This document shows positions 2,452 through 20,720 of a DNA stretch of 64,000 nt, piece by piece. Below the pieces are notes generated by a model, which saw only the letters and a list, made by a program, of their open reading frames with translations, had not been told where the DNA came from and ran no database searches. Every line of letters begins with the position of its first letter. Positions within the stretch are counted from its first letter, which is position 1. Position numbers and translations under genes: made by a program. Source of the DNA: Clostridia bacterium (GTDB lineage: Bacteria; Bacillota; Clostridia; Christensenellales; CAG-314); contig CAAGHL010000070.1 of NCBI GenBank assembly GCA_900769665.1, positions 13,620-77,619 of the forward strand, written 5' to 3'.

Positions 2452-2592
2452 ATACCTTCCTTTCCGTCTTTCGCCACTGAAAACCATCTGCCGACAACGT
2501 TTTGCAAGTTGCGTTGTAGCTTGTCAAATACAATTTTGCATATCTGCAACCGCTAATGCAACTACACTACTTGTCGATATTTTTCTGTGATG

Positions 2593-2613: not shown

Positions 2614-2693
2614 ATATGCCCACTTTGATGACACATAAATCAATTTCGGTGACAAAAAGGCGATACATTGGTGTTGTTCTCCATTCCGAAGAT

Positions 2694-2722
2694 ATAATAT
2701 CACTATTTTTTTGCCTTGACAA
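2694..2722 (-). promoter_or_regulatory. Sigma-A-type promoter candidate for copA
   Basis: Minus strand reads TTGTCA, 17 nt, TATTAT. It would give a leader of about 240 nt. Confidence 0.45.
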
Positions 2723-2815
2723 TCGTTTGAAAATAATTTCTACTGTTTTAGTAGGATTTTTTTTCAGTAAAGCACCATACCGTCGAATTTACACACAAGC
2801 GCCGCCTCGGGCAAC

Positions 2816-2852
2816 AAAAAAACGCACTCCGAAAGGTTGCTTTCGAAGTGCG
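2816..2852 (-). terminator. Rho-independent terminator after the 2868..3830 gene
   Basis: Minus strand: CGCACTTCGAAAG, loop, CTTTCGGAGTGCG, followed by T7. Confidence 0.75.
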
Positions 2853-2867
2853 CCAATGTATACTCTT

Positions 2868-3830
2868 TTACTCGAAGATCACTTTGCCGCTGTCAAAGTT
2901 TATTGCCGACACGTTGCCGATACGTTCTGTCAAGTAGGACACCACCGACGTTGCGTAACCTGCGATTTGCGCCGTAGTCAACGGTTCGTCACCTTCCGCC
3001 GCAATCAACTTAAACAATGCGTCCAATGCGGCAAGACTTACTTCTTTGTCACGCTCGTTGACGGATACGGAGTGGAACTTTCCCGACAGTTTGCCGTTTG
3101 TTTGCGAGAAGTCGTCTAACGCAACGTCCAACTCTGCGTAGACAATGTCGGCAAGGGTGACAAACGGAATTGTAATACCATTGGTATAATCGGATATTTC
3201 CACCGAAACGGTAATGGTCATGTGCGTTTTGCCGTCCGTTTGGTAAAAGCCGAGCTTTTGTATCGATGCGTTTAGCGTTTGCAATATCTCTATCGGCGCA
3301 ATCAACGCCGCCAAGTCCGCCGAGCCGATACTGTCCACCACGTCGGTGACAAATTTGCTGTCGGCGTAAAATTGGTTTAGCGCGGAGTTTATCATATAAG
3401 CCAGCTCCGTAGAGAAAAAGGCATGTTCCTTTTCGAGAGGGTGCAAATCCACGTAGCTGTGCGCCGTACGAAGCAACATTTCTTCATATTTGGGTGTGCC
3501 GTCGGCTGTCTTGTCGACAATCCACAGTTTTGTTTTTTCGTCGGCAGACGCTTTTTCGGCAGCGGTCGGTATGCCGTTTGCGCCGAGAGTATATGCGTCC
3601 TTGGCAAGCGAAGAAGCAACCTTCCACAAACGATTGATTGTGTAGTTACCTAACCCTACGGAGTCGATCGTGTACGTGTCGTTGAGTTTGACGGTACCCA
3701 AGCCTAATGCGTTAGGCGTACTGTTGAACGCCCAAAAGAACGCGCCGACCACAAGCGCAACTATTACAAGTAGAATAATCACGGCGGCAAGCAAACAACC
3801 GCCCTTGGAATAAGATTTGAATACAGACAT
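2868..3830 (-). CDS. Hypothetical membrane-anchored protein (single N-terminal TM helix, ~290-aa outer domain)
   Basis: ORF 2868..3914 trimmed to ATG 3828-3830 behind GGAGAA. TM helix CLLAAVIILLVIVALVVGAFFWAF. No family recognised. Confidence 0.6.
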   Translation of the reverse strand: MSVFKSYSKGGCLLAAVIILLVIVALVVGAFFWAFNSTPNALGLGTVKLNDTYTIDSVGLGNYTINRLWKVASSLAKDAYTLGANGIPTAAEKASADEKTKLWIVDKTADGTPKYEEMLLRTAHSYVDLHPLEKEHAFFSTELAYMINSALNQFYADSKFVTDVVDSIGSADLAALIAPIEILQTLNASIQKLGFYQTDGKTHMTITVSVEISDYTNGITIPFVTLADIVYAELDVALDDFSQTNGKLSGKFHSVSVNERDKEVSLAALDALFKLIAAEGDEPLTTAQIAGYATSVVSYLTERIGNVSAINFDSGKVIFE

Positions 3831-3959
3831 TTTCCGTTCTCCTTGGCTCCGTGACAATGTTTCGGATGTTTCGTCGCGCCAAACGAGTAAGCAAAACTCG
3901 TATTTCGTCCGCACGCAACCGCAAAAACAATCGTCGCCGTTGTAATCGGTAAGAAATCA

Positions 3960-4478
3960 TTACACTTTCTTTGGTTCGGGGTAATCGACTCCGAAAGTTT
4001 CCACAGTGACGGACTTCATGATTTGGTCGTAAAACGGCTTGTCGTACGGGTCGGTGTACTCGTCGGCGATTTCGTCTACAACGTTCATACCCTCGATGAC
4101 TTTGCCGAACGCCGCATATTTTCCGTCAAGGTGAGGTGCGTCGGCGTGCATAATGAAAAATTGACTGCCTGCGCTGTCGGGTTGCATGGAACGCGCCATA
4201 CTGATGACGCCGCGCTCGTGGTAGATGTCGTTGGCAAAGCCGTTGTCGGAAAACTCACCCTTAATGCGGTATCCGGGGCCGCCCGTTCCGTTACCTTTGG
4301 GGCAACCGCCTTGTATCATAAATCCGCGTATTACACGATGAAATTTCAATCCGTTGTAGAAGCCTTTGTTGGCAAGAGAAATAAAGTTGTTGACTGTGTT
4401 GGGGGCAATTTCGGGATAAAGTTCCACCTTGATTTGTTTACCGTTTTCCATTGTGATGGTAGCAATCGGATTAGTCAT
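3960..4478 (-). CDS. ppiB: Peptidyl-prolyl cis-trans isomerase, cyclophilin type
   Basis: Cyclophilin motifs [13 protein letters not shown] and SQFFIM. Start trimmed to ATG 4476-4478 behind AAGGAGGA. Confidence 0.9.
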
Positions 4479-4600
4479 ATTGTCCTCCTTGATGATATTA
4501 TTTTTTGTCGCTTTGTGCGGCAATTAGATTTGCAATGACAGTTTTACAATTGCGATGTGCCAACCTACCAACAATTTTTTATAAAAGCGTATGCCAAATA

Positions 4601-4652
4601 ATCGTCAACGTCAGGTTGCGTCAGGTTGCGACAGGTTGCGGCAGGTTGCGCC
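4601..4652 (-). repeat. Tandem 10-mer array (4 x NCAGGTTGCG), variant of the GCAACCTAACGTTGACG repeat family
   Basis: 4611-4650 reads tcaggttgcg tcaggttgcg acaggttgcg gcaggttgcg, preceded by atcgtcaacg. The terminal unit cgcaacctgacgttgacga (minus strand) differs by 1 nt from the unit at 49693-49711 and 56654-56672. Confidence 0.8.
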
Positions 4653-4724
4653 ATCGCTACACTTATTGTAGCACAAAAACATATACGTACACAAGTATTT
4701 GCAAAAAAATAGGCAAAAATCCGC

Positions 4725-4754
4725 AAAAAAACATGCCCCGATGTACGAGGCATG
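4725..4754 (-). terminator. Rho-independent terminator after the 4774..5334 gene
   Basis: Minus strand: CATGCC, loop, GGCATG, then T7. Confidence 0.7.
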
Positions 4755-4773
4755 CTTGTGATACCGTATGTAA

Positions 4774-5334
4774 TTACTTTTTGCAAACAAACGGTACTGC
4801 AACTGCGCCGAGACCGCCGACAAGGCTGAGTATCGAACCGATAGCAAGCTCAACGGTACTTTTAATAGTAGTAATACCTAAACTTGCGCTGGAACTGTAC
4901 ACGTTTGTGCATATGATTGCAAATACAAATGTTACGATTGCAATCAATGCAAGCAATGCTCCTAAATACTTGATGTAGCCGTACAACTTGGGGACAACAA
5001 GACTGACAACGGCAAGCACGATACCTATACAACCCACGATTGCCGTAACAAGGGACAATACGGTGAACCATTTGGCTTGTGTCTTTTCGTCATCGAGAAA
5101 GAATCTCGTTCTTGCAACACGTCCCGCGTCGGACAAATCACCGACAGCTTTGTCGGACATACCTTCAAGCATACCGAACAAACCATAGCTTGTCTTTTCC
5201 GTCGAGCCTATACCGGATGCGCCGCCTTGCGAAGTCAACAGCGGCAACGCAAAGTTGAGCACTGCCAACACGCACATAACGGCAAACAACACCACGCCGA
5301 TAAAGTTTGCTTTTCTAACCTTTCTTTTTGCCAT
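4774..5334 (-). CDS. Hypothetical polytopic membrane protein
   Basis: ORF 4774..5418 trimmed to ATG 5332-5334 behind GGAGGAA. Several hydrophobic segments. No family recognised. Confidence 0.55.
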   Translation of the reverse strand: MAKRKVRKANFIGVVLFAVMCVLAVLNFALPLLTSQGGASGIGSTEKTSYGLFGMLEGMSDKAVGDLSDAGRVARTRFFLDDEKTQAKWFTVLSLVTAIVGCIGIVLAVVSLVVPKLYGYIKYLGALLALIAIVTFVFAIICTNVYSSSASLGITTIKSTVELAIGSILSLVGGLGAVAVPFVCKK

Positions 5335-5460
5335 ATTTCTTTCCTCCGTTTCAAGTAGTGTCCGCACGACGGCAATGTCGAACGGGCGGATGCCGCAACA
5401 TTTTGCGACGAATACCATATATATAATAATTTACTCGTGGAAAATATTGCAACAAAAATA

Positions 5461-5509
5461 AAAAAAATGTCGCAAGGTTATTTGGTTGTATTCCGTAACC
5501 TTACGACAT
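5461..5509 (-). terminator. Rho-independent terminator after the 5528..5944 gene
   Basis: Minus strand: ATGTCGTAAGGTTA, loop, TAACCTTGCGACAT, then T7. Confidence 0.7.
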
Positions 5510-5527
5510 TCTTTATTTTACCAATTA

Positions 5528-5944
5528 CTATCTTGCAGCCGCAATGCCTGCTTTTGTTCCGTAGTAAATCATTTTTCCGGATTGGGTAATTGTCCAATCG
5601 CTTTCTTTACTATCCTTGTCTTTTTCGGCGTAGGACTTAACTTTGTCCCATGCTGTCTTGGCTTGATCGGCACTTGCAAAGTAAATAACCGTTACGTGGT
5701 CAACCTTTGCGTTGTCGCCTTCGCCAGTGGACTTGGTTCCGGAAATAACAGCCTCTACACCCTTAACTCCTACAAGAGTCAAAGCAGCAGGAACAACATT
5801 TTCGTCTTTTGCCGCGGTGTAACCGTTCTTCTTCAAGGCTTCAATCGCTTTGTCGGGATTGGAGTTGGGTGCGCAAGCAACGAGCATTGCCAAGGACATA
5901 ACCACTACCAATGCAAGAGCTGCAATCTTTGCAAACTTTTTCAT
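5528..5944 (-). CDS. Hypothetical lipoprotein
   Basis: Signal peptide with lipobox (MKKFAKIAALALVVVMSLAMLVAC). 138 aa. Confidence 0.65.
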   Translation of the reverse strand: MKKFAKIAALALVVVMSLAMLVACAPNSNPDKAIEALKKNGYTAAKDENVVPAALTLVGVKGVEAVISGTKSTGEGDNAKVDHVTVIYFASADQAKTAWDKVKSYAEKDKDSKESDWTITQSGKMIYYGTKAGIAAAR

Positions 5945-6094
5945 AAATTTCCTCCTACATTTTTTTTTAGGACAACAAATAGTCTACTACAATTTCTGTC
6001 AAAAGTCAATACCTGACTTTCAAATAGTAGGCGACTTCCCGAAAAATGAACAAATCTCCTTCAAATGTTCATTTTGTACTCGACGTCCTGTTTA

Positions 6095-8914
6095 TCACTT
6101 TACTTTACCATATACAAACGTAAGCGTCGCACTGCCATTCTTTGGCGTAAGGTGACATTCGTGCGGAAGCGGTCCGCATGCGTTACTGCCAAGTCCCGAC
6201 ATAAACAAGTCTGCGGTAAGGTAAGTTCCGTCGCGTTTAGGCAGTTCGAAGTCATGTTTTGCCCCCGCTATTTGCTTGGCGGAATACGGCAACGCCGAGA
6301 ATGACGTCATGCCTTCCACACGCACTAAACGTTTGCCATCGGACACTTCGGCGTAGTCCGATAGGTAGTGACTGCCGCTTTCCTGTGGCTTGACGTAGTG
6401 ATGATATTGTTGCGAAATTGTCGATACGTATTGCTTTTTTTGTGCAAACTCGTACATGTCGCAGTAAGTCTCCGTCGGTCCGTATGCACGGTAAACCAAC
6501 TTGTCAAATTCAAGCGGAAGTTTGGTCGTCCACCCGAGTCTGGGCAAAAACGGCAATGTGCCGCAGTCATCAAAACGATACTCGACATCAAGTTGTACTG
6601 CACTCTCGACAAATGAGTAAACCAAGTGCATTGCGACAACGGGCTTTTTTGTACAGTATGCGACACACACGTCAAACTGCACGGTTTGCCCGACAATGTG
6701 GTAACTTTTGGCTTGACTAACGGCGCTGTCAATGTAAAAATCGTCAAATTTGCCTTGTACATTACGGTCGTTGTCTATCGGAGCGCGATATATCGTGGCT
6801 TCCAATGCGCCGTACTTTTCGCCGTCAACGACAACGGAACACACCTGTCCGCTACACTTGTCAAACACCACGGTCATAAAATTATTTTGTGCCGTTATGT
6901 ATCTGTCGCCGTCGATAATTTGCGTATCGACGCTTTTGCGAACGGGTGGATTTTGCGGCTTACTGCGCAGTTGCGATTGGTAGACCAATCTGTTCCCTTC
7001 GTAGTAGCGTACCGCAATATCTTCTCCTTGCACGGCAATAATTTGGCTTTCACGCGGCTGTAAGTTCACCTCGGTAACGATTGTTTTGCCGTCACACTCG
7101 ATTTCCAACTTTCCGTTTGCCGCAAGGAAAAAGCGTTTGTTGTACACGGTCAAGATATCGCCGCTCAATTCCGCCGTCACGGGACTGTAATAGTGTTGCA
7201 TTTGTAGTGTGCCGCTTTTTACTTCCCTATCGGCGGACACAATGCCGTCACAACAAAAGTTGTCGTCGTGCCTACGTTCGCCGAAGTCGCCGCCGTAACA
7301 CAAACCGCGCTTGCCGTAACGCACGCCGTGATCAGCCCACTCCCACACAAAGCCGCCGATAAAGCGGTCATTGCTTTCCATCAGTTGCCAGTACTCGCGC
7401 ATTTCGCCCGGTCCGTTGCCCATAGCGTGCGCGTACTCGCACAGCACAAGCGGACGATGTTCCTTTACGTCGGAAAGATATTCTTCCGACATCCACTCCA
7501 CCGTCGGATACATTCGGCTTACCATGTCGACGGGCGTTGTGTAGTAGGTGTCGTCCGACCTATTGCAATACCACAGTGACTCGTAATGGAAGGGGCGATT
7601 GTCCAACTTTTTTGCTGCAACGAGTGCCTCGGCAAGGTACTTGCCCCAGCCCGATTCGTTGCCGAGCGACCAAATGACAACGCACGCATGATTTTTGTTG
7701 ACGACAATGTTGCACAGTTGCCGCTCCATTATTTGGTGAGCAAAGTCTTGGTCGTCCATCAGCGCACCAAACACCGAATCATCGTAGCCGTCCGCCATCA
7801 TAACCGTGCCATGAGATTCCATGTCGCTTTCGCTCATCACGTACAAGCCCTGTTCGTCGCACATTTCGTACAAAAGCGGACTTGACGGGTAATGCGATGT
7901 ACGCAGAGCATTGACGTTTAGCGACTTCATCAGCAAAATATCCTTACGCATGTCCTCGTAGCTTACCGCAGCACCCTTGTCGGGGTGGAAGTCGTGACGG
8001 TTGACGCCGTACAGTTTGACAGGTTTACCATTGACAAGGAAAATGCCGTCCTTCACTTCCGAAGTACGCACGCCTACTCGCTCGAATATCTTTTCACCGT
8101 TGGCAGACAACGTAAGGTCGTACAGATTAGGCGTTTCGGCACTCCACAGCTTAACGTCGGGGACGAGGATTGATACCGTTTGGCTCGGCTTTGCCACAAA
8201 ACTCCTACCGTAGAAATCCAGCGAGATTTCCACGTCGGAATTGTTGGTAAACAAAATTTTGCCGTCCGTACCGCAAAAATCGGTGTTTATGGTGTAGTCG
8301 GTGATGTGTTCACTCGGACGCATAAGCATGTATACACTACGGAAAATGCCCGTAAACCGCCACTTGTCTTGATCTTCGAGGTAGCTACACATGTTCCATT
8401 TTAGCACCAGTACGTCGATTTTGTTGTCGCCGACATGCACGAAGTTTGTAACGTCAAACTCACTAATGCGGTGAGACACGTTGGAATATCCCACAAATTT
8501 GCCATTGACATACAGGTAGAAACAGCTGTCCACGCCCTCGAACACCATTGAAACAAACTCGTCTACGCTACTAATCGTAACGTTGCGGCTGTAGTGATAC
8601 GCAGGATTGGGCTTGAGTATGTAGGGTGGATCATACGGAAACGGATAGGCTACGTTTGTGTATTGAAAGTAGTCCAAACCGTAGTACTGCACGCAACTTG
8701 GCACATCGATCCGCTTGGTGGGCGTTTTTGTCCAAAAATCGCCGACATCCAACACCGTGTCGTAGGCTTGTATCGTCCACTTGCCGTCAAGATCGACAAA
8801 TCTTTTACTTTTTGTGCGAAAACCGCGTTTTTGTCCGTCCTCAAACGGAACATAGTAACATCTTTTAGGCAAGGTGTTGATTGAACAGCCTTGAGCGTAA
8901 TATGGTAGAAGCAT
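6095..8914 (-). CDS. Glycoside hydrolase family 2 beta-galactosidase (LacZ type)
   Basis: Motifs WSLGNESGWG and CEYAHAMGNGPG, with a C-terminal beta-gal small-chain-like region. ORF 6095..9025 trimmed to ATG 8912-8914 behind GGAGGT. Confidence 0.9.
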   Translation of the reverse strand: MLLPYYAQGCSINTLPKRCYYVPFEDGQKRGFRTKSKRFVDLDGKWTIQAYDTVLDVGDFWTKTPTKRIDVPSCVQYYGLDYFQYTNVAYPFPYDPPYILKPNPAYHYSRNVTISSVDEFVSMVFEGVDSCFYLYVNGKFVGYSNVSHRISEFDVTNFVHVGDNKIDVLVLKWNMCSYLEDQDKWRFTGIFRSVYMLMRPSEHITDYTINTDFCGTDGKILFTNNSDVEISLDFYGRSFVAKPSQTVSILVPDVKLWSAETPNLYDLTLSANGEKIFERVGVRTSEVKDGIFLVNGKPVKLYGVNRHDFHPDKGAAVSYEDMRKDILLMKSLNVNALRTSHYPSSPLLYEMCDEQGLYVMSESDMESHGTVMMADGYDDSVFGALMDDQDFAHQIMERQLCNIVVNKNHACVVIWSLGNESGWGKYLAEALVAAKKLDNRPFHYESLWYCNRSDDTYYTTPVDMVSRMYPTVEWMSEEYLSDVKEHRPLVLCEYAHAMGNGPGEMREYWQLMESNDRFIGGFVWEWADHGVRYGKRGLCYGGDFGERRHDDNFCCDGIVSADREVKSGTLQMQHYYSPVTAELSGDILTVYNKRFFLAANGKLEIECDGKTIVTEVNLQPRESQIIAVQGEDIAVRYYEGNRLVYQSQLRSKPQNPPVRKSVDTQIIDGDRYITAQNNFMTVVFDKCSGQVCSVVVDGEKYGALEATIYRAPIDNDRNVQGKFDDFYIDSAVSQAKSYHIVGQTVQFDVCVAYCTKKPVVAMHLVYSFVESAVQLDVEYRFDDCGTLPFLPRLGWTTKLPLEFDKLVYRAYGPTETYCDMYEFAQKKQYVSTISQQYHHYVKPQESGSHYLSDYAEVSDGKRLVRVEGMTSFSALPYSAKQIAGAKHDFELPKRDGTYLTADLFMSGLGSNACGPLPHECHLTPKNGSATLTFVYGKVK

Positions 8915-9021
8915 TTTTACCTCCATGGTAGCAGTATCTGCGACATCAGGCGTTGAAGTTTGACGAATTACAGCCCAAAATGTCACGAAAAATCGCTTAC
9001 GTATTATATTTTTTCCGACAG

Positions 9022-10212
9022 TCAATTCTCTTGCGAAGTGTATTCGCAGGACTGCCTATCCACAGTTGCGACCACGTACACATTGGGATGCAGTTCCGCA
9101 ACTTTACTTTGCAAATAATTGCGAAGTTCGCCGTCGGACATTGCACAGTCGAAGGTCACAGCCACGTCAAATATCAAATTGATGCGTTGCGGCCCCTTTA
9201 CCATGCGGAAGTCATGCACGCCGAAACGCTCGTCGAGTTGCGCCACAATTTGCTTTACTTCCTTGCGGTAGCCGTCCAACACGGGGTCGCCGACAACAAT
9301 GGGGTCCATGTGTATCACCAACGTTACATCGGTATGCTCGGCAAAGTCCCGCTCGATATTGTCCACCAATTCGTGGCTTGTCATCACGTCCACCGCCGCG
9401 TCCACTTCCACATGCACGCTTGCGTAAAACTTGTTCGGACCGTAGTTGTGCACTTCTAGGTCGTGGATGCCCTTTACTCCGTCAAATTGCATGATGCGGT
9501 TGTATATGCCGTCGACAACTTCTTTGTCGGGAGCTTTGCCTAGCAGTTTGCTCATTGTGTCGCGCAGTATGCCTACGCCGGCAACGCCGATAAGCACTGC
9601 CACCGCCAAGCCGACAATGCCGTCCAAGTACACAAAACCCGTGTATTTGGTGACAAGTACCGACGCTAAAACGCCGAAAGTGGCACACGAGTCGGACAAA
9701 CTGTCCGTTGCGGTTGCTTTCAACAATTCACTGCCGTAGGTGTTGCCAAGTTTGCGATTGAACAAAAACATCCACAGTTTAACCGCAATGGATACGCCCA
9801 ATACCCCGACAGTCCACCAACTGAATTCCGAAGCCGTCGGCGAAATAATCTTGTCTATACTCTCTTTTGCCAGTTGCAAGGCAAGCACGGCAACTATCAC
9901 GCCTACGACCAATGCCGAAACGTACTCGATACGCTGATGTCCGTAAGGATGGTCTTTGTCGGCTTTTTTGCCTGCCAACTTGAAGCTGACAAGCGAAATA
10001 ACGTTGCTTCCGCAGTCGGTAAGGTTGTTGATACCGTCTGCAAGCGCAGACACCACGCCGAACATTAGGCCTATCGCCATCTTTGAAACGGCAAGCAATA
10101 TGTTTAGTATTATGCCTACGGTGCCGCTCAACTTTCCGACTTGTTGTCGTACCGTGCCGTTTTGCGTTTCGGCGTAGTTTGGCACGAATAGTTTTAGTAA
10201 CAGTTTTGTCAT
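9022..10212 (-). CDS. Cation diffusion facilitator (CDF) family metal efflux transporter
   Basis: Six hydrophobic segments, DHPYGHQRIEY, and a C-terminal cytoplasmic domain. The ORF-track start at 10221 is TTG; the first ATG is 10210-10212. Start uncertain by 3 codons. Confidence 0.85.
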   Translation of the reverse strand: MTKLLLKLFVPNYAETQNGTVRQQVGKLSGTVGIILNILLAVSKMAIGLMFGVVSALADGINNLTDCGSNVISLVSFKLAGKKADKDHPYGHQRIEYVSALVVGVIVAVLALQLAKESIDKIISPTASEFSWWTVGVLGVSIAVKLWMFLFNRKLGNTYGSELLKATATDSLSDSCATFGVLASVLVTKYTGFVYLDGIVGLAVAVLIGVAGVGILRDTMSKLLGKAPDKEVVDGIYNRIMQFDGVKGIHDLEVHNYGPNKFYASVHVEVDAAVDVMTSHELVDNIERDFAEHTDVTLVIHMDPIVVGDPVLDGYRKEVKQIVAQLDERFGVHDFRMVKGPQRINLIFDVAVTFDCAMSDGELRNYLQSKVAELHPNVYVVATVDRQSCEYTSQEN

Positions 10213-10401
10213 GAAATTCAACCTACGTATTATTTTTTTGTGATTTTACCGTCAACGCCAACCACATTAGCGATACCAATCTGCACAGCACAATCGTGTG
10301 TAAAATTAGCGACGGAAACACCGCTAAATAGCAATTTGCCTTCCGCACAATGGCAGAAAGCAAATAGTATTCTTTTGATAGTAACGGCGAGTTTTTGCCG
10401 T

Positions 10402-11832
10402 CTATTTTGTCTTGTTGAAGTAGTCTTGCACTATCTTGTACAGCATGCCCGTGTCGTCGTATTCGCCGGGATTGGTTGCTCCGACAGTGCCGACCTTGCT
10501 CCAAGCCTCGGCAATTTCCTCATATGTTGCCGTTGTAATGTCCACTTTCAGTTCGCCTGCGCCAAGACACATTTTGTTGACGTACAATCCCCAACTGTTG
10601 TCCCAATCGCCTACGGAGATAGCTTTGTAATTCCAAATTGTCCAGCCAAAACCTCTCTTGTCGTACTCGGCAAGCCATTTGTCCCATTCCGCCTCGTTGT
10701 CAAAGAAAGTAAATTCCCCTATTAGATACGGGACATCGAACGCCTTGAACGAATATGTAAGGTCTTGCGCCCAATAAAACATATCGTAACTGATGGTGCC
10801 GCTGTTCCAATTGTACATATGCAATTGGTACATGACATTGTTCCAACCAAACAACGACGGATCGATGCAACTGCCAAACATCCAACAAAATTCCACGGAT
10901 ATTAGGTGGTTTTGCGTGTCTACATCCCGTATTGCGCGGTACAATTTGTCCATCACTGCCGCTTGCTTGCGCGTAGTAGACGGCGTATTGCGGTCGACGG
11001 GTTCGTTCATCAGGTCATATGCGCCTATCGTTTGGGACAAGTCTTTCCGCACGGTGGCGTAACGCTCGGCAATTGTTTTCCATAACAAGCACATGTCTTC
11101 CTGTGCTTTTTCGTTGGTCCAAAAGTCGATTGTACGCAAGCCGCTGTGCTCGTAACCGTTTTGTCCGCCTTCTACTCCGTGCATATCCAATATAGCGTAC
11201 AAGCCGTTTGCCTTGCATTGATCCAAGAACCAGTCCAATCGTTTGTACCACTCGTTTTTCATCACGTAGTTGTTGTTGGCGTCCAACTCCATAAAGTTAC
11301 CAAAATACATCGGCAACCGCACAGTGTTGAAACCGAGTTGCTTGACGTAGACAAAGTCGACTTCCTGTATAAAGTTATCTTGGTAAATATCCACAAGCTT
11401 GTCGGCTTTTTCCTTGCCGAAACGCTCGGTAAGAATGTCCAATTCGTCCTGATAGAAACTTTCCTTGTAACTTTCCACAATTCCGTTTTCGTTTACTTTG
11501 GCAGGTTTTCCGTCTTTATCGAGCTCCACGCCTACGCTGTGCGTGCAAAGCCAACCCTCGGTAATCAACCAGTTGCCGAAGTTAATTCCGCGAAATGTTA
11601 CGCGATTGCCGTCGGCGTCGTACACGCCTCTGCCGTTTGCACGCAACGGTTGGTCGACGGCAGTTTCCCCCGTCCATTGTATTTTGTCAGGTACGGGCGC
11701 GTAGTAGTTGTCGGCAAAAACAGCGACTTTTACAAGCAATATACCTGTAATCAGTGCAAATACAAGCACTATTGCCACCACTACAATCAACACGCGTTTC
11801 AATACGGAACGCTTTTGTTTTGCCTCTTCCAC
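10402..11832 (-). CDS. Glycoside hydrolase family 5 (cellulase/mannanase-like) with N-terminal membrane anchor
   Basis: TM helix VLIVVVAIVLVFALITGILLV, FNTVRLP, and catalytic NEP (YDLMNEPV). Start set to GTG 11830-11832 behind AAAGGAGA; the ORF-track start at 11895 has no RBS. Confidence 0.8.
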   Translation of the reverse strand: MEEAKQKRSVLKRVLIVVVAIVLVFALITGILLVKVAVFADNYYAPVPDKIQWTGETAVDQPLRANGRGVYDADGNRVTFRGINFGNWLITEGWLCTHSVGVELDKDGKPAKVNENGIVESYKESFYQDELDILTERFGKEKADKLVDIYQDNFIQEVDFVYVKQLGFNTVRLPMYFGNFMELDANNNYVMKNEWYKRLDWFLDQCKANGLYAILDMHGVEGGQNGYEHSGLRTIDFWTNEKAQEDMCLLWKTIAERYATVRKDLSQTIGAYDLMNEPVDRNTPSTTRKQAAVMDKLYRAIRDVDTQNHLISVEFCWMFGSCIDPSLFGWNNVMYQLHMYNWNSGTISYDMFYWAQDLTYSFKAFDVPYLIGEFTFFDNEAEWDKWLAEYDKRGFGWTIWNYKAISVGDWDNSWGLYVNKMCLGAGELKVDITTATYEEIAEAWSKVGTVGATNPGEYDDTGMLYKIVQDYFNKTK

Positions 11833-14045: not shown

Positions 14046-14225
14046 CACTACCCCGACCACCCACCCCTCAAGGTCAAAGAACTTTATTATAAAGTAGCAT
14101 GCGAGGCGCGACCTACTTTGTCGCAACGTGGCAATCTCGCGGAAGCACCATTGTCGCAAGGTTGCTTTCCAGCAGATCCCCACGTCGCGACAAGTACAGT
14201 CGCTCCTCGGGATGACACTTTATTG
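14046..14225 (+). repeat. A-type intergenic repeat, full-length copy (A1)
   Basis: The left part (cactaccccga ccaccc..ctcaaggtcaaagaactttatta) matches 16491-16500 plus 16659-16712. The right part, 14126-14216, is the reverse complement of 18910-18994. Confidence 0.8.
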
Positions 14226-14236
14226 CATACTAACAC

Positions 14237-14390
14237 TCACTTAATCATTTTCTACCAACTAAGTGTTTGGTGGGCAAGGTGTTGCCCCACGGCGACATCG
14301 GAGCGTAGGCACATACAACTGAGAGCGGTCAACAAGTGATATTGCTCTACGCGGAGCGAGCATCAGGCGTTCGCAGTGGGACAATGCCTT
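14237..14390 (-). repeat. B-type repeat, inverted copy (B2), MITE-like
   Basis: The reverse complement aligns to 16502-16658 at about 80% identity over about 100 nt (ctgcgaacgc.tga.gctcgctccgc..agagcaata ... gcctacgctccgatgtcgc.gtg.ggcaac). Confidence 0.7.
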
Positions 14391-14614: not shown

Positions 14615-16399
14615 ATGAGTTACACCAACCGCAATGAAATCCCCGCAAAATATACTTGGAACCTCGGCGACATCTTCGCCACACCAGACAAATGGGAAGA
14701 GGCTTTCAACCAACTGTCCAAGGAGTACACCGCTTTGTGCGACTTCCAAGGCAAGCTTGCAAACCGCGACAGTTTGCTTGAATTTTTCAAGCTGTCCGAC
14801 AAAATCGACCTCAAATTGGAGCAACTGTACTGCTACGCTTCCATGGCTTACAACGAGGACAGCCAAGACTCCGTACGTCAAGCACGTTTCAGCAAAATTT
14901 ACGGCTTACTCAACAAGTATGACGCCGCAACAAGCTTTGTTTCTCCGGAATTGTCGGCAATCCCCGACGAGCAACTGAAAGCATTCATTGCCGATCCCGC
15001 TTTTTCCGACTACGACGTCATCCTTACCAACCTACTTGAAGGCAAAGCGCACATTTTGTCCGAAGCGGAAGAAAAACTCATGGCAAAAGTCGGCACGTTC
15101 TCCGAGCAATTCCACGAAGTTTTCAATCGCTTGGACAGCGGCGACATCAAGTTTGACAAAATAACCGTCAACGGCGAGGAAGTCCAACTCGGTCACGGCA
15201 CATACAGTATGCTGTTGCAAAACAAGGATCAAGCTGTGCGTAAACTTGCGTTTGAAACCTACTACAAGGCATATGTCGACGTAATAAATACGCTTGCCGG
15301 CGTTTACGAAGGCAGCGTAAAGGCGGACTGGTTCCGCGCCGAAGCTCGTCACTTCAACTCCACAATGGAAATGGCACTGTTCTACGAACATGTAGACAAA
15401 GCCGTGTACGACAACCTTATCAAATGCACGCACGAGTCGCTTGCGCCACTACATCGCTACATTGCGCTACGCAAAAAACTGATGGGTTTGGAAACGCTCA
15501 ACATGTACGACTTGTACGTGTCCATATTTGAAGACGCCGACATCTCCTGCGAATACGAAGAGGCTTGCGAGCTTGTGTTGAAAGGCTTGGCACCCCTCGG
15601 CGAAGATTACCTAAAAGTCGTGCGCGAAGCATTTGCCAACCGCTGGATTGACGTACACGAAACGCCGACAAAGCGTAGCGGCGCATACAGCATGGGCGTA
15701 AAGGGCGTACACCCCTACATGCTACTCAACTACCAAAAAACCACGCACGACATCTTTACAATCGCGCACGAAATGGGACACTCCATGCACAGCTATTACA
15801 GCGAGTTGACGCAACCGCAAGCAAAAAGCGACTACAAGATTTTCGTTGCCGAAGTTGCTTCCACATGCAACGAAGTGTTGTTGCTAAAATATTTGCTAAA
15901 AACGGAAACCGATCCCGCCGTCAAAAAATACTTGCTGCAATACTACTTGGATATGTTGCGCACCACGCTGTACCGTCAAACAATGTTTGCCGAGTTTGAA
16001 CAAATTTCCCACGACATGGCGGAAAAGGGCGTACCTTTCACCACCGAAGCACTGTGCGAAAAATACTTGGCACTCAACAAAATGTACTACGGCGAAGCAG
16101 TCCACCACAACGAAGAAATCAAGTACGAGTGGGCGCGTATACCGCACTTTTACCGCGCATTTTACGTGTACAAGTACGCTACCGGTATCATTTCGGCAGT
16201 GTGCATAGCGGAAAAAATTCTCAGCGAAGGCGCACCCGCATTGGCGGCTTACCGCAAGTTTTTGACGCTTGGCGGCAGCATGGACCCCGTGTCGGAATTG
16301 AAAGTGGCAGGCGTAGACCTTACGACGGAAGAACCCTTCAAAATCGTTGCAAAGAGCTTCGAAGACACGCTCAACCAATTGGAAGAACTGTGTAAGTAA
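14615..16399 (+). CDS. pepF: Oligoendopeptidase F (M3B metallopeptidase)
   Basis: HEMGH zinc site (IAHEMGHSMH) and a 594-aa length typical of M3B. ORF 14456..16399 trimmed to ATG 14615 behind GAAGGAG. Confidence 0.9.
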   Translation: MSYTNRNEIPAKYTWNLGDIFATPDKWEEAFNQLSKEYTALCDFQGKLANRDSLLEFFKLSDKIDLKLEQLYCYASMAYNEDSQDSVRQARFSKIYGLLNKYDAATSFVSPELSAIPDEQLKAFIADPAFSDYDVILTNLLEGKAHILSEAEEKLMAKVGTFSEQFHEVFNRLDSGDIKFDKITVNGEEVQLGHGTYSMLLQNKDQAVRKLAFETYYKAYVDVINTLAGVYEGSVKADWFRAEARHFNSTMEMALFYEHVDKAVYDNLIKCTHESLAPLHRYIALRKKLMGLETLNMYDLYVSIFEDADISCEYEEACELVLKGLAPLGEDYLKVVREAFANRWIDVHETPTKRSGAYSMGVKGVHPYMLLNYQKTTHDIFTIAHEMGHSMHSYYSELTQPQAKSDYKIFVAEVASTCNEVLLLKYLLKTETDPAVKKYLLQYYLDMLRTTLYRQTMFAEFEQISHDMAEKGVPFTTEALCEKYLALNKMYYGEAVHHNEEIKYEWARIPHFYRAFYVYKYATGIISAVCIAEKILSEGAPALAAYRKFLTLGGSMDPVSELKVAGVDLTTEEPFKIVAKSFEDTLNQLEELCK

Positions 16400-16405
16400 A
16401 AATAC

Positions 16406-16445
16406 AACGTCGATGCGCTTGTCGTGTCGACGTTCTTTTTTGTTT
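16406..16445 (+). terminator. Rho-independent terminator after pepF
   Basis: AACGTCGA, loop, TCGACGTT, followed by CTTTTTTTGTTTTG. Confidence 0.8.
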
Positions 16446-16501
16446 TGTTCCCACCGACTTGTTTGCAAGATATGGTCGGTTTGCACGAACCACTACCCCG
16501 A

Positions 16502-16658
16502 AAATCGCCTCGCTATTACCACGCTGCGAACGCTTGAAGCTCGCTCCGCACAGAGCAATATAGATATAGTCCGCTTTCAATCTTATGCGCCTACGCTCCG
16601 ATGTCGCTGTGTGGCAACAACTCGGCTCCACCCCTTCGGGAAAGGCAATGATTTTTTT
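16502..16658 (+). repeat. B-type repeat, forward copy (B3), apparently inserted into an A-type repeat
   Basis: It separates cactaccccga (16491-16501) from ccacccctcaaggtc (16659-), which are contiguous at 14046-14075. GA is present at both junctions. The ends aaatcgcct and aggcaatgattt form an imperfect terminal inverted repeat. Confidence 0.65.
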
Positions 16659-16735
16659 GACCACCCCTCAAGGTCAAAGGACTTTATTACAACGCACGAC
16701 CTATTGTTGCAATCCGTTTGAAAGCAACCTTTGCA
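16659..16735 (+). repeat. A-type repeat, partial copy (A2)
   Basis: gaccacccctcaaggtcaaaggactttattacaacgcacgacctattgttgcaa matches 14055-14126. Confidence 0.7.
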
Positions 16736-16758
16736 AAACTATAACATTTCCTTAAAAC

Positions 16759-16812
16759 TGCTCAATATTTTTGCCGAATATTGCTCAATGAAAACGCCGA
16801 ATATTGCTCAAT
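16759..16812 (+). promoter_or_regulatory. Three direct repeats of TGCTCAAT phased exactly 23 bp apart (candidate regulator-binding array)
   Basis: TGCTCAAT at 16759-16766, 16782-16789 and 16805-16812. The last two sit within identical 17-mers, GCCGAATATTGCTCAAT (16773-16789 and 16796-16812). Confidence 0.5.
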
Positions 16813-16840
16813 CCTTGACAAATGGCGAAAAAAACTAACG

Positions 16841-16869
16841 TTGACAAGTAGGTCTTACTACAATATAAA
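16841..16869 (+). promoter_or_regulatory. Orphan near-consensus sigma-A promoter
   Basis: TTGACA (16841-16846), 17 nt, TATAAA (16864-16869). There is no plus-strand CDS downstream before the hairpin at 17082-17110. Confidence 0.5.
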
Positions 16870-16875
16870 GCCGAC

Positions 16876-17115
16876 ATCGACAATAAAGTTACCGTCAACA
16901 ATTGTCGGGATACTCGCAAAGGGCGCTCTTGTTTCCCCAAGGGCAGGGGAAGGCATAGATGCGAGGGCGTTCGCCGCAAGGACTGCGGCTCGGCTGAGGA
17001 CACGTTTTACACTTCGGCACTACTTGATCGGCTTAATGAGCCAAATACATAGTAGGCAATGTTATTTTCATTATGCAAGAAGCCCTCTTGCGGATTTTCC
17101 GCAAGAGGGCCTTGA
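16876..17115 (+). ncRNA. Candidate ~240-nt orphan transcript (sRNA or leader remnant); hypothetical
   Basis: Bounded by the orphan promoter and a 13-bp-stem hairpin. Local hairpins include CCGACA..TGTCGG and GCCGCA..TGCGGC. The only coding potential is a 12-codon micro-ORF (16959-16997) behind GGGGAAGG. No known RNA family recognised. Confidence 0.2.
17082..17110. terminator. Strong hairpin terminator downstream of the pilin-like gene (possibly bidirectional)
   Basis: GCCCTCTTGCGGA, TTT, TCCGCAAGAGGGC. On the minus strand it is followed by a T-rich tract. Confidence 0.75.
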
Positions 17116-17172
17116 TTGTTGGATCGAGTTGTCAATTGCGATAGAATACTCTATCGATTGTCGGGCAAACAC

Positions 17173-18810
17173 CTATTTGGAAACGATGTACCACGTGTCG
17201 CTACCAATTACTTCCGAAGTTGTTTTGCAACCTTCGCCGAGCAGAATTTTGCCAGTATAAGCGTTCTCAGGATCAACTGGTGTAACGCCGGGATTGTAAT
17301 TTTTGAATTTACCACCATTTACAGTAATCGTGCAACCTGCAGTGGCGCTATCTTCATGATTCAAAACATAAGATATTTTGTTGCTTGGTGTCGCAGTTTC
17401 AAAAGTACCACCATTGATAGTAACAGTTGCCTTACTTCCGCTAGAGCGTGCGGTACACACATAGATACAAGAGGTTTGTTCTGATGTTCCGTAGAAGTGA
17501 CCACCGTTGATTGTCAACTTGCCGTAGTTTCCTGCACGTACAGCACTTGTTACTTTGTTGGTATATGTCTTGTCCGATCCAATAACAGCACCGGTTTGGG
17601 CTTCACTACTATCATTTATGGTCAATTTACCACCCGAACCACCGATGTAGAATACAGATCCGTTGTTGGGCTTAACGCCATCAGCATATTCAAGTTTAAC
17701 AGTATGTCCGTTCAAATCAATGACAAATTTTTTGCCTGACATGTAGATTTCATCTGTAACGGTAACATCGGCAATAAATTTCAAATATGCGCCTTTCTTT
17801 AATTTTTCAATCTTTAATGCTTGCTCGCCGGTTGCGATCAAATAAGGACTTTCTTCCGTGCCAAGACCACCAACGAAATTGTTAACATCATCTTTTACGA
17901 TATCCACTTTCTTATCTTTCTTTACTTCAGCAGGAATAGTTGTAGCATTTTTAACCACATCCAATACGCTATCATCAGTAGCTGCAACAAGATTTATTTT
18001 TGCACCTTCTTCTGCTACAATTTTAACATCACCAGCACCATTATCAGTAGGAGATACAAGAACAACGTTTACTACAGCTTGCTTAGTAATCTCAAGTTTT
18101 CCTTCCTTAATTGTAAGGTTGCCACGAACTTCACCCTTTTCATAATAAGAGTGTGGAGCAACAGCAGTAATATTAACTTTATCAACAGTGCCATGGTGTT
18201 CCACACTATCAGTTACGGCGTCAATCGTAAGGTTGCCACCCTTTGTACGAATAACAACATCTTGCGCATTTGTATTTGCCACGTACTTAAGTTCGTCAAC
18301 TGTAGTTTCACCTGCATCGAAACCAACCTTTACTTCGAGAGGCTTTTCGGCTGAAGTTTCAATAGTTTCACCTGCCCAGTAGATAGAATACTTTTGGTTT
18401 TCTACTGCGGGAATTTCCTTGCTAAGGAATTGCCAATATTGATAATCCTTGACGTCCTTGTTGGTTTGCGTGTCGGGAATACCCGTGATACCTTTTTCCG
18501 TTTTGTAAACAAAGCAGTAGTTGACGCTGTCCCACAAAATTTCGTGTTCGCTTACGCTTGCGCTGATTTTTGCAACGTCAAAACCTGCGTTTTCCTTGAC
18601 TGCGCCGAGTACGTCGTAGACCGTGTCGTACTTTTCGGTGCTGAGTGCGATTGCCTTGTTGAGGTTAGACACAAGTGCCTCGTCCTTGGCTTGGTTTGCC
18701 TTGCTGATAAGACTGCTGAATGTAGGGATAAGTACTGCCGCAAGCAATGCTATTACGGCAACAACAATGATCAGTTCCACCAAAGTGAAACCTTTTTTAC
18801 TATTTTTCAT
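17173..18810 (-). CDS. Large type IV pilin-like protein (prepilin N-terminal cleavage/methylation domain plus ~510-aa C-terminal domain)
   Basis: N-terminus MKNSKKG/FTLVELIIVVAVIALLAAVLIPTF. The C-terminal third has repeated strands KLTINGGHFYG, TVTINGGTFET and ITVNGGKFKN. ATG 18808-18810 behind AAGGAGAA. Confidence 0.8.
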   Translation of the reverse strand: MKNSKKGFTLVELIIVVAVIALLAAVLIPTFSSLISKANQAKDEALVSNLNKAIALSTEKYDTVYDVLGAVKENAGFDVAKISASVSEHEILWDSVNYCFVYKTEKGITGIPDTQTNKDVKDYQYWQFLSKEIPAVENQKYSIYWAGETIETSAEKPLEVKVGFDAGETTVDELKYVANTNAQDVVIRTKGGNLTIDAVTDSVEHHGTVDKVNITAVAPHSYYEKGEVRGNLTIKEGKLEITKQAVVNVVLVSPTDNGAGDVKIVAEEGAKINLVAATDDSVLDVVKNATTIPAEVKKDKKVDIVKDDVNNFVGGLGTEESPYLIATGEQALKIEKLKKGAYLKFIADVTVTDEIYMSGKKFVIDLNGHTVKLEYADGVKPNNGSVFYIGGSGGKLTINDSSEAQTGAVIGSDKTYTNKVTSAVRAGNYGKLTINGGHFYGTSEQTSCIYVCTARSSGSKATVTINGGTFETATPSNKISYVLNHEDSATAGCTITVNGGKFKNYNPGVTPVDPENAYTGKILLGEGCKTTSEVIGSDTWYIVSK

Positions 18811-18909
18811 ATGAAATATTCTCCTTAAGATTACGCCACTATGAATCCATATGTGGTCTTACTAATACTCTGTTTTGCACATTTGCCTCAAATTGACACA
18901 TTGAATTAT

Positions 18910-18994
18910 GTCATCCCGAGGAGCGACATTTGCGACGTGGGGATCTGCTGGAAAGCACCCTTATTACAATGGCGCTTCCGCGAGATTGCCACGT
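18910..18994 (-). repeat. A-type repeat, inverted partial copy (A3)
   Basis: The reverse complement matches 14126-14216 (about 78 of 85 aligned bases, one 6-nt indel). Confidence 0.8.
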
Positions 18995-19170
18995 CAGCCG
19001 ACGTTCACGGCTTCCTCGCAATGACAATCACACGCAACGCAACCATTTTGTCGGCGTCTTTGCCATAATGTCATTACTTACAAATGTACACGTTTTTTGC
19101 ATACGCATCGATTTTTCGCACGCAAAAATACCCTTCACCAAGGTATGGTGCGGGTTACAGGAAGAATATT

Positions 19171-19614
19171 TCAGCACAGCAGCACTTGCAAAATGCTGTA
19201 CAAATTTTGCTTATCTAACGGCTCGATTTTCCAACGGGGGGGGGTAGAGCCGTTGTCGCAAAGGCGTTCGTACGCCTTGCGCTTTTTGCCGCCAAGGTAG
19301 TTGACAATGCCGTCAACGGTCATCATTGCCACAATCAAGGCTTGCGCCCACAGCACAAACTCCACCACGGTAAGCGGAATGATTGCGCTTACACCGCCGG
19401 CAAACATAACCGTCATTGCATGCGCGTAGACGTCCTTGCCGAGCAGGTTGCACACGGATTGTTGCAAAATGCCCTCGTTGGTGCACAGGCACAGTATTGC
19501 AAAGGTGAAGAAAAACAAAATGGCATGCAAAACGTTGACCGTCTTGCGACTTTTGCGCTCCACAACGACGGACAACACGATGTTTATCAACATGTAAACA
19601 ACCAAGATTGCCAT
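19171..19614 (-). CDS. Hypothetical small membrane protein
   Basis: ATG 19612-19614 behind GAGGAG; four hydrophobic segments. Contains a C9 tract (19236-19244) near the 3' end. Confidence 0.5.
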   Translation of the reverse strand: MAILVVYMLINIVLSVVVERKSRKTVNVLHAILFFFTFAILCLCTNEGILQQSVCNLLGKDVYAHAMTVMFAGGVSAIIPLTVVEFVLWAQALIVAMMTVDGIVNYLGGKKRKAYERLCDNGSTPPRWKIEPLDKQNLYSILQVLLC

Positions 19615-19808
19615 AATTTGCCAAACTCCTCAATTTTGCAAGCCAAAATACCCTCTAGGGGCTTTTGCATTGAACATTATAATACTTTACTCAACGTAAG
19701 TCAACAAAATAGCCGCAAATATGCGACAATTTGCCGAAAAATGTAAAAATTTTTACTAGAAATGCACACGATTTTTTTATTACGTATGTAATTTTTCGTG
19801 TCATTGAG

Positions 19809-20720
19809 CTACAAAGTAATGGACATTGTGCGAAGGTCGACGTCATGTATTTGGTCGTTTATGCAGTAGGCGTATGGCTCGAGGAAGGTTTCCGTGCGTT
19901 CCGTCAACCCTACACTGCGCAAGCCGTCGGCAACTACTGCGCAAACGCTTTCCGCAAGGGCAGGAGATTCGTCCAAAGGGCAACCGACAAGCGCAGTCAG
20001 CATATCCCCCACTTGCGCCCCAAGTACGGGCAAAGCCGCCAAACCACGGTGCGCCCACTTGTAGTACGGCATGTAGGCGTTGTTGATTAGGTACACCGCC
20101 GACATTGTGCTTTCGACAAACCCAGACAGTGCGCCAAACGCCGCCACACGCTCGTTGCGAGCAAGGCAACGCGGCAAATTGTACTGTCCGCTTTGCGCCA
20201 TGCCAAACAGCGCCGAGGCAAGCTTTTTCAGTCGCACGTCCTCGGGACGGTTGAGCAAATACGCCCTTATGTCGGAAAAATCGCCATACGTATCGCAAAA
20301 AACCTGACCGTTGGTGGCTTCGGCAAGGTAGCTGTCGGGCAAAGCAAGCCACTGTTTGGCAGCGACGGGGACTTCCGCACCGACGTAAAATGTGTAAAAC
20401 TCCGTTGTGGTATGCACGCCCCTGCCGACAAATTGCGACTCGTTTAGGCAATATCCGCCGCCATGCGCACGCACCAATTTGGTGTAGGCACGGGACAGTC
20501 GGAAGCCGATACGGTCGTAGTCCTCGTCGGTGAGCCACATGCAAAAGCCAATGCCGAAGTCGTGATCGCGCGACAGTTCGTCGTCGAAACCGAAGCACTC
20601 CGATCCGTGCCCTGCCAACCCCACGGCAATGCGGTCGGCGTAGTCGGCAAAGTTGTCGGCAATCATTTGTTTGCCGTACTGCTCGTAGAAGTCGCGAGCT
20701 TCCGCCAAGCCCTTACTCAT
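19809..20720 (-). CDS. DUF4037-like (nucleotidyltransferase-associated) protein
   Basis: N-terminal pattern ARDFYEQYGKQMI...RIAVGLAGHGSECFGFDDELSRDHDFG, as I recall for DUF4037. ATG 20718-20720 overlaps the upstream stop (ATGA). Confidence 0.65.
   Translation of the reverse strand: MSKGLAEARDFYEQYGKQMIADNFADYADRIAVGLAGHGSECFGFDDELSRDHDFGIGFCMWLTDEDYDRIGFRLSRAYTKLVRAHGGGYCLNESQFVGRGVHTTTEFYTFYVGAEVPVAAKQWLALPDSYLAEATNGQVFCDTYGDFSDIRAYLLNRPEDVRLKKLASALFGMAQSGQYNLPRCLARNERVAAFGALSGFVESTMSAVYLINNAYMPYYKWAHRGLAALPVLGAQVGDMLTALVGCPLDESPALAESVCAVVADGLRSVGLTERTETFLEPYAYCINDQIHDVDLRTMSITL

Follow-up and report, generated by a model that had tools for sequence, protein, structure and literature searches.

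The 64-kb stretch examined here (hereafter the window, i.e. the whole of the DNA analysed, corresponding to positions 13,620 to 77,619 of contig CAAGHL010000070.1, assembly GCA_900769665.1, from an uncultured Clostridia bacterium of the human gut) harbours on its minus strand, at 17173..18810, a complete gene coding for a 545-aa protein that is very probably a modular type IV pilin. The open reading frame (ORF), taken from the ORF list, starts with ATG and ends with a stop codon at 17173-17175; a Shine-Dalgarno-like AAGGAG, read from the sequence, lies 10 nt upstream of the ATG (18821..18826, minus strand). A 13-bp GC-rich hairpin at 17082..17110, ~60 nt past the stop codon, was found by a terminator scan and as a self-complementary blastn match, and likely terminates transcription from both sides, the pilin and M3-peptidase genes being convergent. 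The gene is monocistronic, with a ribosome-binding site (RBS) of good quality and a terminator of its own. In homologue searches the protein was 100% identical to P0001, present on two metagenome contigs, and 1218 relatives were retrieved, all of them from metagenomes or metagenome-assembled genomes (MAGs), which identifies the ORF as a real gene and not a chance reading frame.

The N-terminus, MKNSKKG followed by FTLVELIIVVAVIALLAAVLIPTF, is a class III (prepilin) signal with predicted cleavage between MKNSKKG and FTLVE. It combines a short basic leader, Gly at -1, Phe at +1 and Glu at +5 with a subsequent hydrophobic stretch, and is recognized above the respective cut-offs by Pfam PF07963 (N_methyl; 30.8 bits vs 21.2, E=1.9e-7, residues 3-27) and NCBIfam TIGR02532 (27.6 bits vs 16.3, residues 5-27), in agreement with the original prediction, made from the sequence alone, of a prepilin cleavage/methylation signal. 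The leader peptide (residues 1-7; 18790..18810, minus strand) ends in Gly(-1), the predicted cut by a prepilin peptidase falling before Phe8, and G7, F8, T9 and E12 are invariant among 52 homologues. Beyond this N_methyl-type signal, Pfam and NCBIfam searches of the full protein and of its C-terminal domain returned nothing. Equivalog hidden Markov models for named pilins and pseudopilins (GspG-K, ComGC-GF, PpdD and PilA) stayed well under their cut-offs (13-33 bits against 44-400 for the Com and T2SS pseudopilins), over signal and alpha1 only, and in a sequence search of the PDB pilins aligned over alpha1 only (Geopilin, PilA and PilE; E down to 2e-7).

The weak N-terminal NCBIfam matches to ComGC, ComGD, ComGE and ComGF would suit a minor pilin of a competence (Com) pseudopilus with a DNA-binding beta-solenoid like that of Thermus ComZ, and ComZ itself (6qvi), a large pilin with a beta-solenoid, is in the Foldseek list of the modelled protein. 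We nevertheless consider such a role very improbable: the Com matches, confined to the shared signal and alpha1, do not come near their cut-offs, the Foldseek match to ComZ has E=5.3 and a probability of 0.02, the related operons described below possess an MshEN-type PilB and several large adhesin-like pilins (LRR_5, PF20585) with no comG layout, and a DNA receptor is not expected to be hypervariable.

The mature part is ~3-4 times the size of an ordinary pilin, as had been anticipated. In a full-length AlphaFold2 (AF2) model obtained from a 52-sequence alignment of full-length homologues (mean predicted local distance difference test, pLDDT, 86.2; predicted template-modelling score, pTM, 0.81), it begins with a 46-residue alpha1 helix at 10-55. 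This alpha1 region (residues 8-55; 18646..18789, minus strand) comprises a hydrophobic alpha1N with Glu +5 and an amphipathic alpha1C, and would provide the filament-core assembly interface. It leads into a putative small pilin head (residues 56-130; 18421..18645, minus strand), which is conserved together with alpha1 in operon-linked homologues. The predicted secondary structure of this region, two short helices and four beta-strands (H64-75, H79-85, E90-94, E99-104, E107-109 and E125-129), suggests the layout of a small pilin head across residues 64-129. Residues 131-300 (17911..18420, minus strand) form a beta-rich stalk or connector, with AF2 strands at 142-277 and block-mean pLDDT mostly >88; mean identity across the family is 39% in the stalk, whose conserved core VVIRTxGGxLTxxA...HxG..DKV.ItAV is set within what is otherwise the most variable part of the family. 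The C-terminal payload (residues 301-545; 17176..17910, minus strand) comprises the GGLGTEESPYLI motif with a cap helix after it and then ~6 predicted coils of a right-handed parallel beta-helix.

The payload is marked by the motifs DLNGH, TINDSS, three copies of INGGxF, VLNHxD and NYNPGVTxVDP, and by the polar residues D365, H369, D400, S402, N484, D487 and D513, invariant in the 52-homologue alignment. The full-length model places a short helical linker after the stalk and then strand triplets at 323-544, while residues 302-545 modelled alone from a 31-sequence alignment of the payload domain (pLDDT 92.6, pTM 0.91) gave about six three-strand coils with a period of ~31 residues; a cap helix followed by three-strand coils of this period is the signature of a right-handed parallel beta-helix. 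The three INGGxF strands singled out in the original prediction (residues 430-441, 461-472 and 493-504, spaced by 31-32) occupy successive three-strand coils in the AF2 models. The beta-helix it had surmised for the C-terminus is also what the models and Foldseek predict: essentially all PDB matches of the domain model are beta-helices, the best being 3n6z (E=0.027, probability 0.80), none of them significant. No significant match was obtained with either the full or the domain model against the PDB, nor in BFVD; the non-significant matches include the adhesins SRRP 5ny0 and Awp1, tapirins and 3n6z. At the sequence level, neither PF20585 nor PF13229 matched the window protein at E<=1, and PDB searches with the protein and with the 31-sequence domain profile produced, between them, pilin alpha1 helices and a sub-threshold cap-motif match to 3n6z. 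PF20585 (‘pectate lyase-like adhesive domain’) does match 2 of the 31 payload-domain relatives and is also found on several relatives of the N-terminal module. A right-handed beta-helix is thus well supported by modelling as the fold class of the payload, with no specific family.

Many of the Foldseek matches are enzymes (GH55, GH82 carrageenase, pectin methylesterase, pectate lyases and PL6), as well as phage tailspikes, and peptidase-bearing modular pilins have been catalogued. With the same architecture and display, the payload might be an enzyme of the pectate-lyase-fold superfamily (a hydrolase, an esterase or a polysaccharide lyase), serving as a depolymerase for dietary or host glycans or for the capsules of other bacteria. 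Its unusual conservation between distant carriers (67% where the carriers are 27% identical), with invariant polar residues, and the GH2, GH3 and GH5 enzymes encoded in the window would fit this possibility, which we hold to be rather unlikely: no CAZy-type or lyase Pfam family matches the payload, whose sole family link is the ‘adhesive’ beta-helix PF20585; 245 residues and ~6 coils are short for a beta-helix depolymerase; there is no significant match and hence no catalytic constellation to transfer; and the identity of 71% seen within the species would be less tolerable for an active-site scaffold. By analogy, the payload is probably adhesive.

Full-length relatives of the pilin, 520-550 aa in size, reach identities down to 44%. 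A scan of species-representative genomes yielded 80 loci, all from uncultured gut Clostridia (human, ruminants, reindeer, rabbit and chicken), most of which align with residues 1 to ~230-370 only. At one of them, L015, a 645-aa homologue, 37% identical over residues 1-368 and thus through the GGxGTxxxPYLI junction, opens an operon that continues with three small N_methyl pilins, two unknown genes, PilD (A24_N_bact + Peptidase_A24), PilC (T2SSF) and PilB (T2SSE + MshEN). The operon of L030 has the same layout, and PROSITE-type motif scans indicate an L015-like layout at L037, L046, L055 and L061; the homologues of L015 and L037 have the stalk in common with the window pilin as far as the junction. 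A search with residues 1-300, which missed the full-length family, probably because of its word index, and is taken for the range of architectures only, retrieved further proteins of ~170-525 aa, many of them probably fragments, with C-terminal parts including PF20585, PF13229 (Beta_helix) and PF13306 (LRR_5). Taken together, residues 1 to ~300 amount to a conserved carrier, made up of pilin and stalk, whose payloads can be exchanged. The alpha1N, KKGFTIVELVIVIAVIAILAAVLIPTF, is almost identical between the small pilins of related operons and the large pilins, as subunits joining a common filament core would require. The pilus display put forward in the original prediction draws comparative support from these small pilins and from the N-module homologues that open pilin-PilD-PilC-PilB operons.

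A class III signal occurs in 129 ORFs of the related loci. These ORFs fall into two size classes, 100-200 aa and 400-2325 aa, and those of the larger class frequently lie in tandem, with several to a MAG. MAG CALVHW01 has, besides the operon of L030, two large orphan pilins, one of 549 aa on L027 and one of 820 aa with BspA-type leucine-rich repeat (LRR) modules on L039, and, as far as gene arrangement indicates, a genome appears to combine a single machine with several modular pilins at scattered sites. The largest prepilin-type protein found is a 2325-aa ORF with the class III signal KGFSIVELII (L035, 12069 onward, plus strand). In 24 of the 129 signals, nearly all of large pilins, Ala replaces Gly at -1 (KAFTVVEL, RAFTITEL); the loci concerned are L003/L090 (11801-13597), L014, L016, L017, L019, L022, L026, L027, L032, L035, L039, L041, L043, L048, L065, L066, L071 and L075. 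Ala(-1), unusual in bacterial prepilins, may imply a peptidase of relaxed specificity. In L090 (10001-13597; the same as L003), two modular pilins stand in tandem, a 532-aa relative of the window pilin and a pilin of 586 aa that combines Ala at -1 with a long acidic linker of DPETDSET-type repeats and a different beta-helix-like C-terminus; they adjoin an Rnf operon, the same neighbourhood as that of a cluster in L083 described below.

Within the window, a six-frame scan for class III motifs, with Gly at -1 and then with Ala or Ser allowed, found the pilin only, and no T2SSE, T2SSF or Peptidase_A24 domain (PilB, PilC and PilD) occurs among the Pfam-scanned ORFs, an absence that is strong and not absolute, ~12 ORFs being without any Pfam match. 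The earlier remark that no pilus machinery lies within 64 kb is therefore confirmed to this extent. By their Pfam matches the neighbours are ordinary housekeeping, sporulation and glycoside-hydrolase genes (including GH2, GH3 and GH5). Silent pilS-like cassettes were considered and rejected, as tblastn of the pilin against the window finds no second copy.

An orphan gene with no machinery nearby might also encode a protein that is not polymerised, its class III signal serving, once processed by PilD, to anchor it in the membrane, or else to export it through a pseudopilus similar to the type II secretion system, and the product being a cell-bound or secreted factor. The large size of the protein could hinder filament packing, and genomes of the clade hold many large prepilin-type proteins (up to 2325 aa), more than one tip seems to need. 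We regard this as unlikely, because alpha1N, including Glu+5, is conserved and near-identical to that of the co-encoded small pilins, which filament packing needs and anchoring does not, because homologues open pilus operons, and because, by our own estimate, an anchored protein of such size would hardly clear the Gram-positive wall.

The payload occurs beyond pilins. A full HMMER scan of residues 302-545 against 1.84 billion cluster representatives retrieved 338 clusters at E<=1e-3, 18 of them at E<=1e-30, and the N-termini of the carriers differ: prepilin signals (some with Ala at -1), SipW-dependent signals, collagen repeats, SLH domains and very large surface proteins. The protein P0135 combines the collagen repeat PF01391 with PF20585 over the region homologous to the payload, and P0137 combines SLH domains with a payload relative. 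The module that follows the pilin part is accordingly not specific to pili, being found in SipW-signal, collagen-repeat, SLH and very large surface proteins.

Among these carriers, proteins of 593-603 aa are ~80% identical to window residues 304-545 and bear the SipW-dependent signal TIGR04088 (27.9 bits vs a cut-off of 19). Their gene clusters also encode a SipW-like archaeal-type signal peptidase I (TIGR02228, 75.8 bits), an LPXTG protein and more proteins with SipW-dependent signals and, by this gene content, look like a tapA-sipW-tasA-like fibre locus. As the payload is found both in prepilins and in SipW-signal proteins, fibre subunits of two unrelated kinds present the same payload. Their hosts can be far apart: between L083, with a SipW-type host, and L090, with a pilin-type host, RnfC and RnfD are 50% and 56% identical, respectively, and the payloads 79%. 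The TasA-like fibre locus of L083/L084 (~960-11800) comprises an LPXTG protein, a Peptidase_M73-like 181-aa protein and the SipW-like peptidase, then four SipW-dependent-signal proteins (394, 491, 596 and 596 aa) and a 319-aa protein; the last 596-aa protein, P0101, is the one bearing the payload of the window pilin. The window itself has no SipW TIGR04088 motif (TFAWFTD-type) in any of the six frames.

Five metagenome or MAG contigs have the pilin gene in the same context, namely the window, L087, L092 (= GCA_965347585.1), L093 and L094. The common order runs from SpoIIE through Hexapep, TPR, DUF4037 and a small membrane protein to the pilin, which an M3-peptidase gene faces in convergent orientation. 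Among the five contigs, the neighbouring proteins compared (M3 peptidase, DUF4037, TPR and Hexapep) are 96-100% identical, which points to a single species, against only 74-88% for the pilin, whose sequence is mosaic. Its head, stalk and payload diverge independently of one another: the window pilin matches that of L092 at 98% in the head, 67% in the stalk and 83% in the payload, and that of L087 at 91%, 86% and 71%, respectively. At the DNA level, the first 300 nt are 95-100% identical to L087, and identity in the 3' half is patchy, between 48% and 96%. Across the family, identities of N-module and payload are almost uncoupled (Spearman 0.27), and where two N-modules agree at 90% or more, payload identity lies anywhere within 46-96%. 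Between distant members of the full-length family no part is better conserved than the payload (67% where carriers are 27% identical), which between close relatives ranks with the most variable parts. The 27% identity of DinB between the window and L090 was set aside, the two proteins probably not being orthologous. The pattern points to a recombining, diversifying, exposed surface antigen, the case for selection being drawn from these patterns of identity.

A conserved N-terminus joined to a hypervariable C-terminus is the classical pattern of a major pilin gene. Together with monocistronic organization, a good RBS and an own terminator, it would fit a separate thick filament in which the window pilin is the major subunit, each copy bearing a beta-helix. 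Such an arrangement seems to us quite unlikely, given that the related operons always hold 115-195-aa pilins resembling a major subunit, and that a 510-aa subunit on every protomer would, in our own steric reasoning, be hard to fit. Raynaud et al. (PMC8179133) moreover regard modular pilins as most likely exposed at the tip.

The payload may even represent a horizontally exchanged, diversifying cassette, placed on a pilin, a SipW/TasA-type subunit, a collagen-like stalk or an SLH-anchored protein, with alleles recombining within and between species, which would keep the same ligand-binding function on each lineage's own fibre and escape recognition by immunoglobulin A (IgA) or phages. We advance this tentatively, as a possibility about which we remain doubtful. 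If it were true, the carrier and its multiple orphan copies would constitute an uncharacterised adhesin repertoire of uncultured gut Clostridia.

The DNA around the pilin gene has further peculiarities. In the sister strains, an AAA_14/DUF4143 ATPase gene is inserted between the pilin and the M3 peptidase (L087 12072-13361; L093 7730-10007, where a GIY-YIG gene is also present; L094 8103-9392), and at the corresponding position of the window (~16400-17170) there is only a 770 bp repeat-bearing spacer, which makes the 3' flank of the pilin an indel hotspot. The suggestion that the gene is embedded between repeat elements holds in part, in that both intergenic flanks contain 50-100-nt dispersed repeats shared with 14061-14376 at 82-92%. 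The upstream repeat (18909..18994, strand unassigned) has an inverted copy at 14126-14217 (92% in the repeat search, 87% over 92 nt by blastn), the downstream one (16524..16622, strand likewise unassigned) was found by the repeat search with an inverted copy at 14277-14376 (82% over 100 nt by blastn), and a 32-nt copy links 16661-16692 with 14061-14092 (blastn 94%). Overall, the three intergenic regions around the M3-peptidase and pilin genes (14061-14376, 16524-16692 and 18909-18994) hold inverted repeats of 30-100 nt at 82-94%; sister-strain loci also have copies of these short, perhaps REP- or MITE-like, repeats. Rfam and tRNA scans of the window gave no matches, so the long flanks of the pilin gene are not known RNAs.

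Directly upstream of the pilin lies a gene (19171-19614, minus strand) for a 147-aa predicted multi-pass membrane protein with no Pfam match, which is 97% conserved at the same position in the sister strain L087, the C-terminus being different. As a conserved upstream partner it was rejected, since it is kept within the species only and is not homologous to the counterpart upstream of P0058, a pilin gene of L090 52% identical to the window pilin. The G+C content of the pilin region (window 16001-20000) is 44.5-44.8% vs 49-55% in its neighbours, as would suit a surface gene that evolves fast or has been exchanged laterally. Elsewhere in the window, a pair of 57-nt inverted repeats (49658-49714 and 56651-56707; 84% identical, 6.9 kb apart) consists of reiterated AACGTTGACG / CCTAAC units and is unrelated to the pilin gene. 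Long ORFs (348-733 aa) without a Pfam match at E<=1e-3 are found at 33237-35438, 40535-42139, 55211-56563 and 2868-3914 (all minus strand) and at 337-1422 (plus strand).

Modular pilins are known from Streptococcus sanguinis, where PilB carries a vWA module and PilC a lectin (Raynaud et al. 2021, PMC8179133; Shahin et al. 2023, PMC9934059). Dataset S1 of PMC8179133 lists the architecture IPR012902-IPR039448 for 3 proteins, and its main text, which names IPR026906 as one of the extra domains in the 15 commonest architectures, expects many more modular pilins with modules that have no signature. The window pilin resembles these proteins in its class III signal and small pilin carrier, in a bulky C-terminal module that is not pilus-specific, in its monoderm host and in the predicted tip display and adhesion. 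We take IPR039448 to be the right-handed beta-helix domain (Pfam PF13229), and IPR026906 is presumably the BspA-type LRR region. On this understanding, both combinations with a pilin in the census mean that the kind of protein described here is already known. Unlike the catalogued modular pilins, the window pilin has a payload without a Pfam or InterPro signature, hence invisible to the census of PMC8179133, and a conserved ~170-residue beta-rich stalk between pilin part and payload; its gene is an orphan far from a pilus operon, and its family reaches several copies per genome in uncultured gut Clostridia, with strong allelic mosaicism within the species.

Other large pilins offer partial parallels. 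Thermus thermophilus ComZ (6qvi) and CofB of enterotoxigenic Escherichia coli also have beta-rich extra domains in large proteins (~520-550 aa) and are thought to be located at the tip. Yet the structural similarity to ComZ is not significant (E=5.3) and ComZ binds DNA, its solenoid reportedly being inserted into the pilin fold and not appended to it, whereas CofB is an adaptor for a secreted protein. The models suggest a three-strand-per-coil fold in common with PF20585 (Pectate_lyase_5), with the binding region of the Lactobacillus reuteri serine-rich repeat protein SRRP (5ny0, 5nxk), with Bacteroides ovatus BACOVA_03286 (3n6z), which also has the GxGTxxxPYxI cap motif of the payload, and with the Caldicellulosiruptor tapirins (4wa0, 6n2b). 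The tapirins are cellulose-binding beta-helices encoded beside a type IV pilus locus; their Foldseek match to the window pilin is not significant, and, being described as proteins of their own that bind cellulose, they would lack its prepilin signal. To our knowledge tapirins are not pilins, and we know of no prepilin signal in SRRP adhesins. The SipW-dependent TasA/camelysin-type fibre proteins share the same C-terminal beta-helix (~80%) and differ entirely in secretion signal, N-terminal fold and assembly pathway. The ‘pilin 938’ cluster of TANB77 (Kim et al. 2024, PMC11680825) is likewise pilin-like, comes from uncultured human-gut Clostridia and is discussed as a host-interaction factor; equivalence with it was rejected, as that pilin is of the Tad/Flp type (homology to TadZ/CpaE, CpaF and TadB/C), measures 143-236 aa and is not of the GFTxxE prepilin class.

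Taken together, we favour, as the probable reading, a modular pilin that is serviced in trans, assembled by PilB and PilC, most likely into the tip of a pilus, and that displays a beta-helix binding a ligand. The precursor would insert in the membrane through its hydrophobic alpha1N, and a PilD-type peptidase encoded elsewhere would cut after Gly7, removing MKNSKKG, and methylate Phe1. A PilB/PilC machine, also encoded elsewhere, would then extract the subunit and polymerise it via alpha1 into a host pilus made mainly of small pilins (~115-170 aa) sharing alpha1N, with the window pilin likeliest at the tip or else at a low-abundance position in the shaft. Stalk and beta-helix would be carried through the Gram-positive wall and displayed, likely binding a glycan or another surface, and the orphan locus is, within the species, a mosaic, hypervariable series of alleles, as expected of an exposed structure under immune or phage selection. 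Several points weigh against this account. The 64-kb window holds no prepilin peptidase, ATPase, platform protein or second pilin; processing and assembly in the source organism are extrapolated from the operons of relatives; MAG bins can be chimeric, which weakens the argument from one operon plus orphans; and adhesion, argued by analogy and with no ligand nameable, is the weak element.

Three points go beyond the original prediction: the architecture class had been described before, SipW-type fibre proteins bear the payload too, and the species is hypervariable at this locus. Specific to the present case are the uncurated payload family, the conserved stalk, the orphan site, the multi-copy expansion, the sharing with SipW/TasA-type subunits and the mosaic alleles within a species. 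The concept of pili is unchanged, as pilins with grafted modules are an established principle. Little is known of the means by which uncultured gut Clostridia adhere to host mucus, to particles of the diet and to other microbes, and the locus reveals families of large prepilin-type proteins with payloads missed by current domain databases. If display on a pilus is true, the census of modular pilins would be enlarged, type IV pili and SipW/TasA-type fibres, systems unrelated to each other, would offer a concrete example of a payload held in common, and the protein would provide a strain-variable surface antigen for strain tracking or for studies of IgA targeting.

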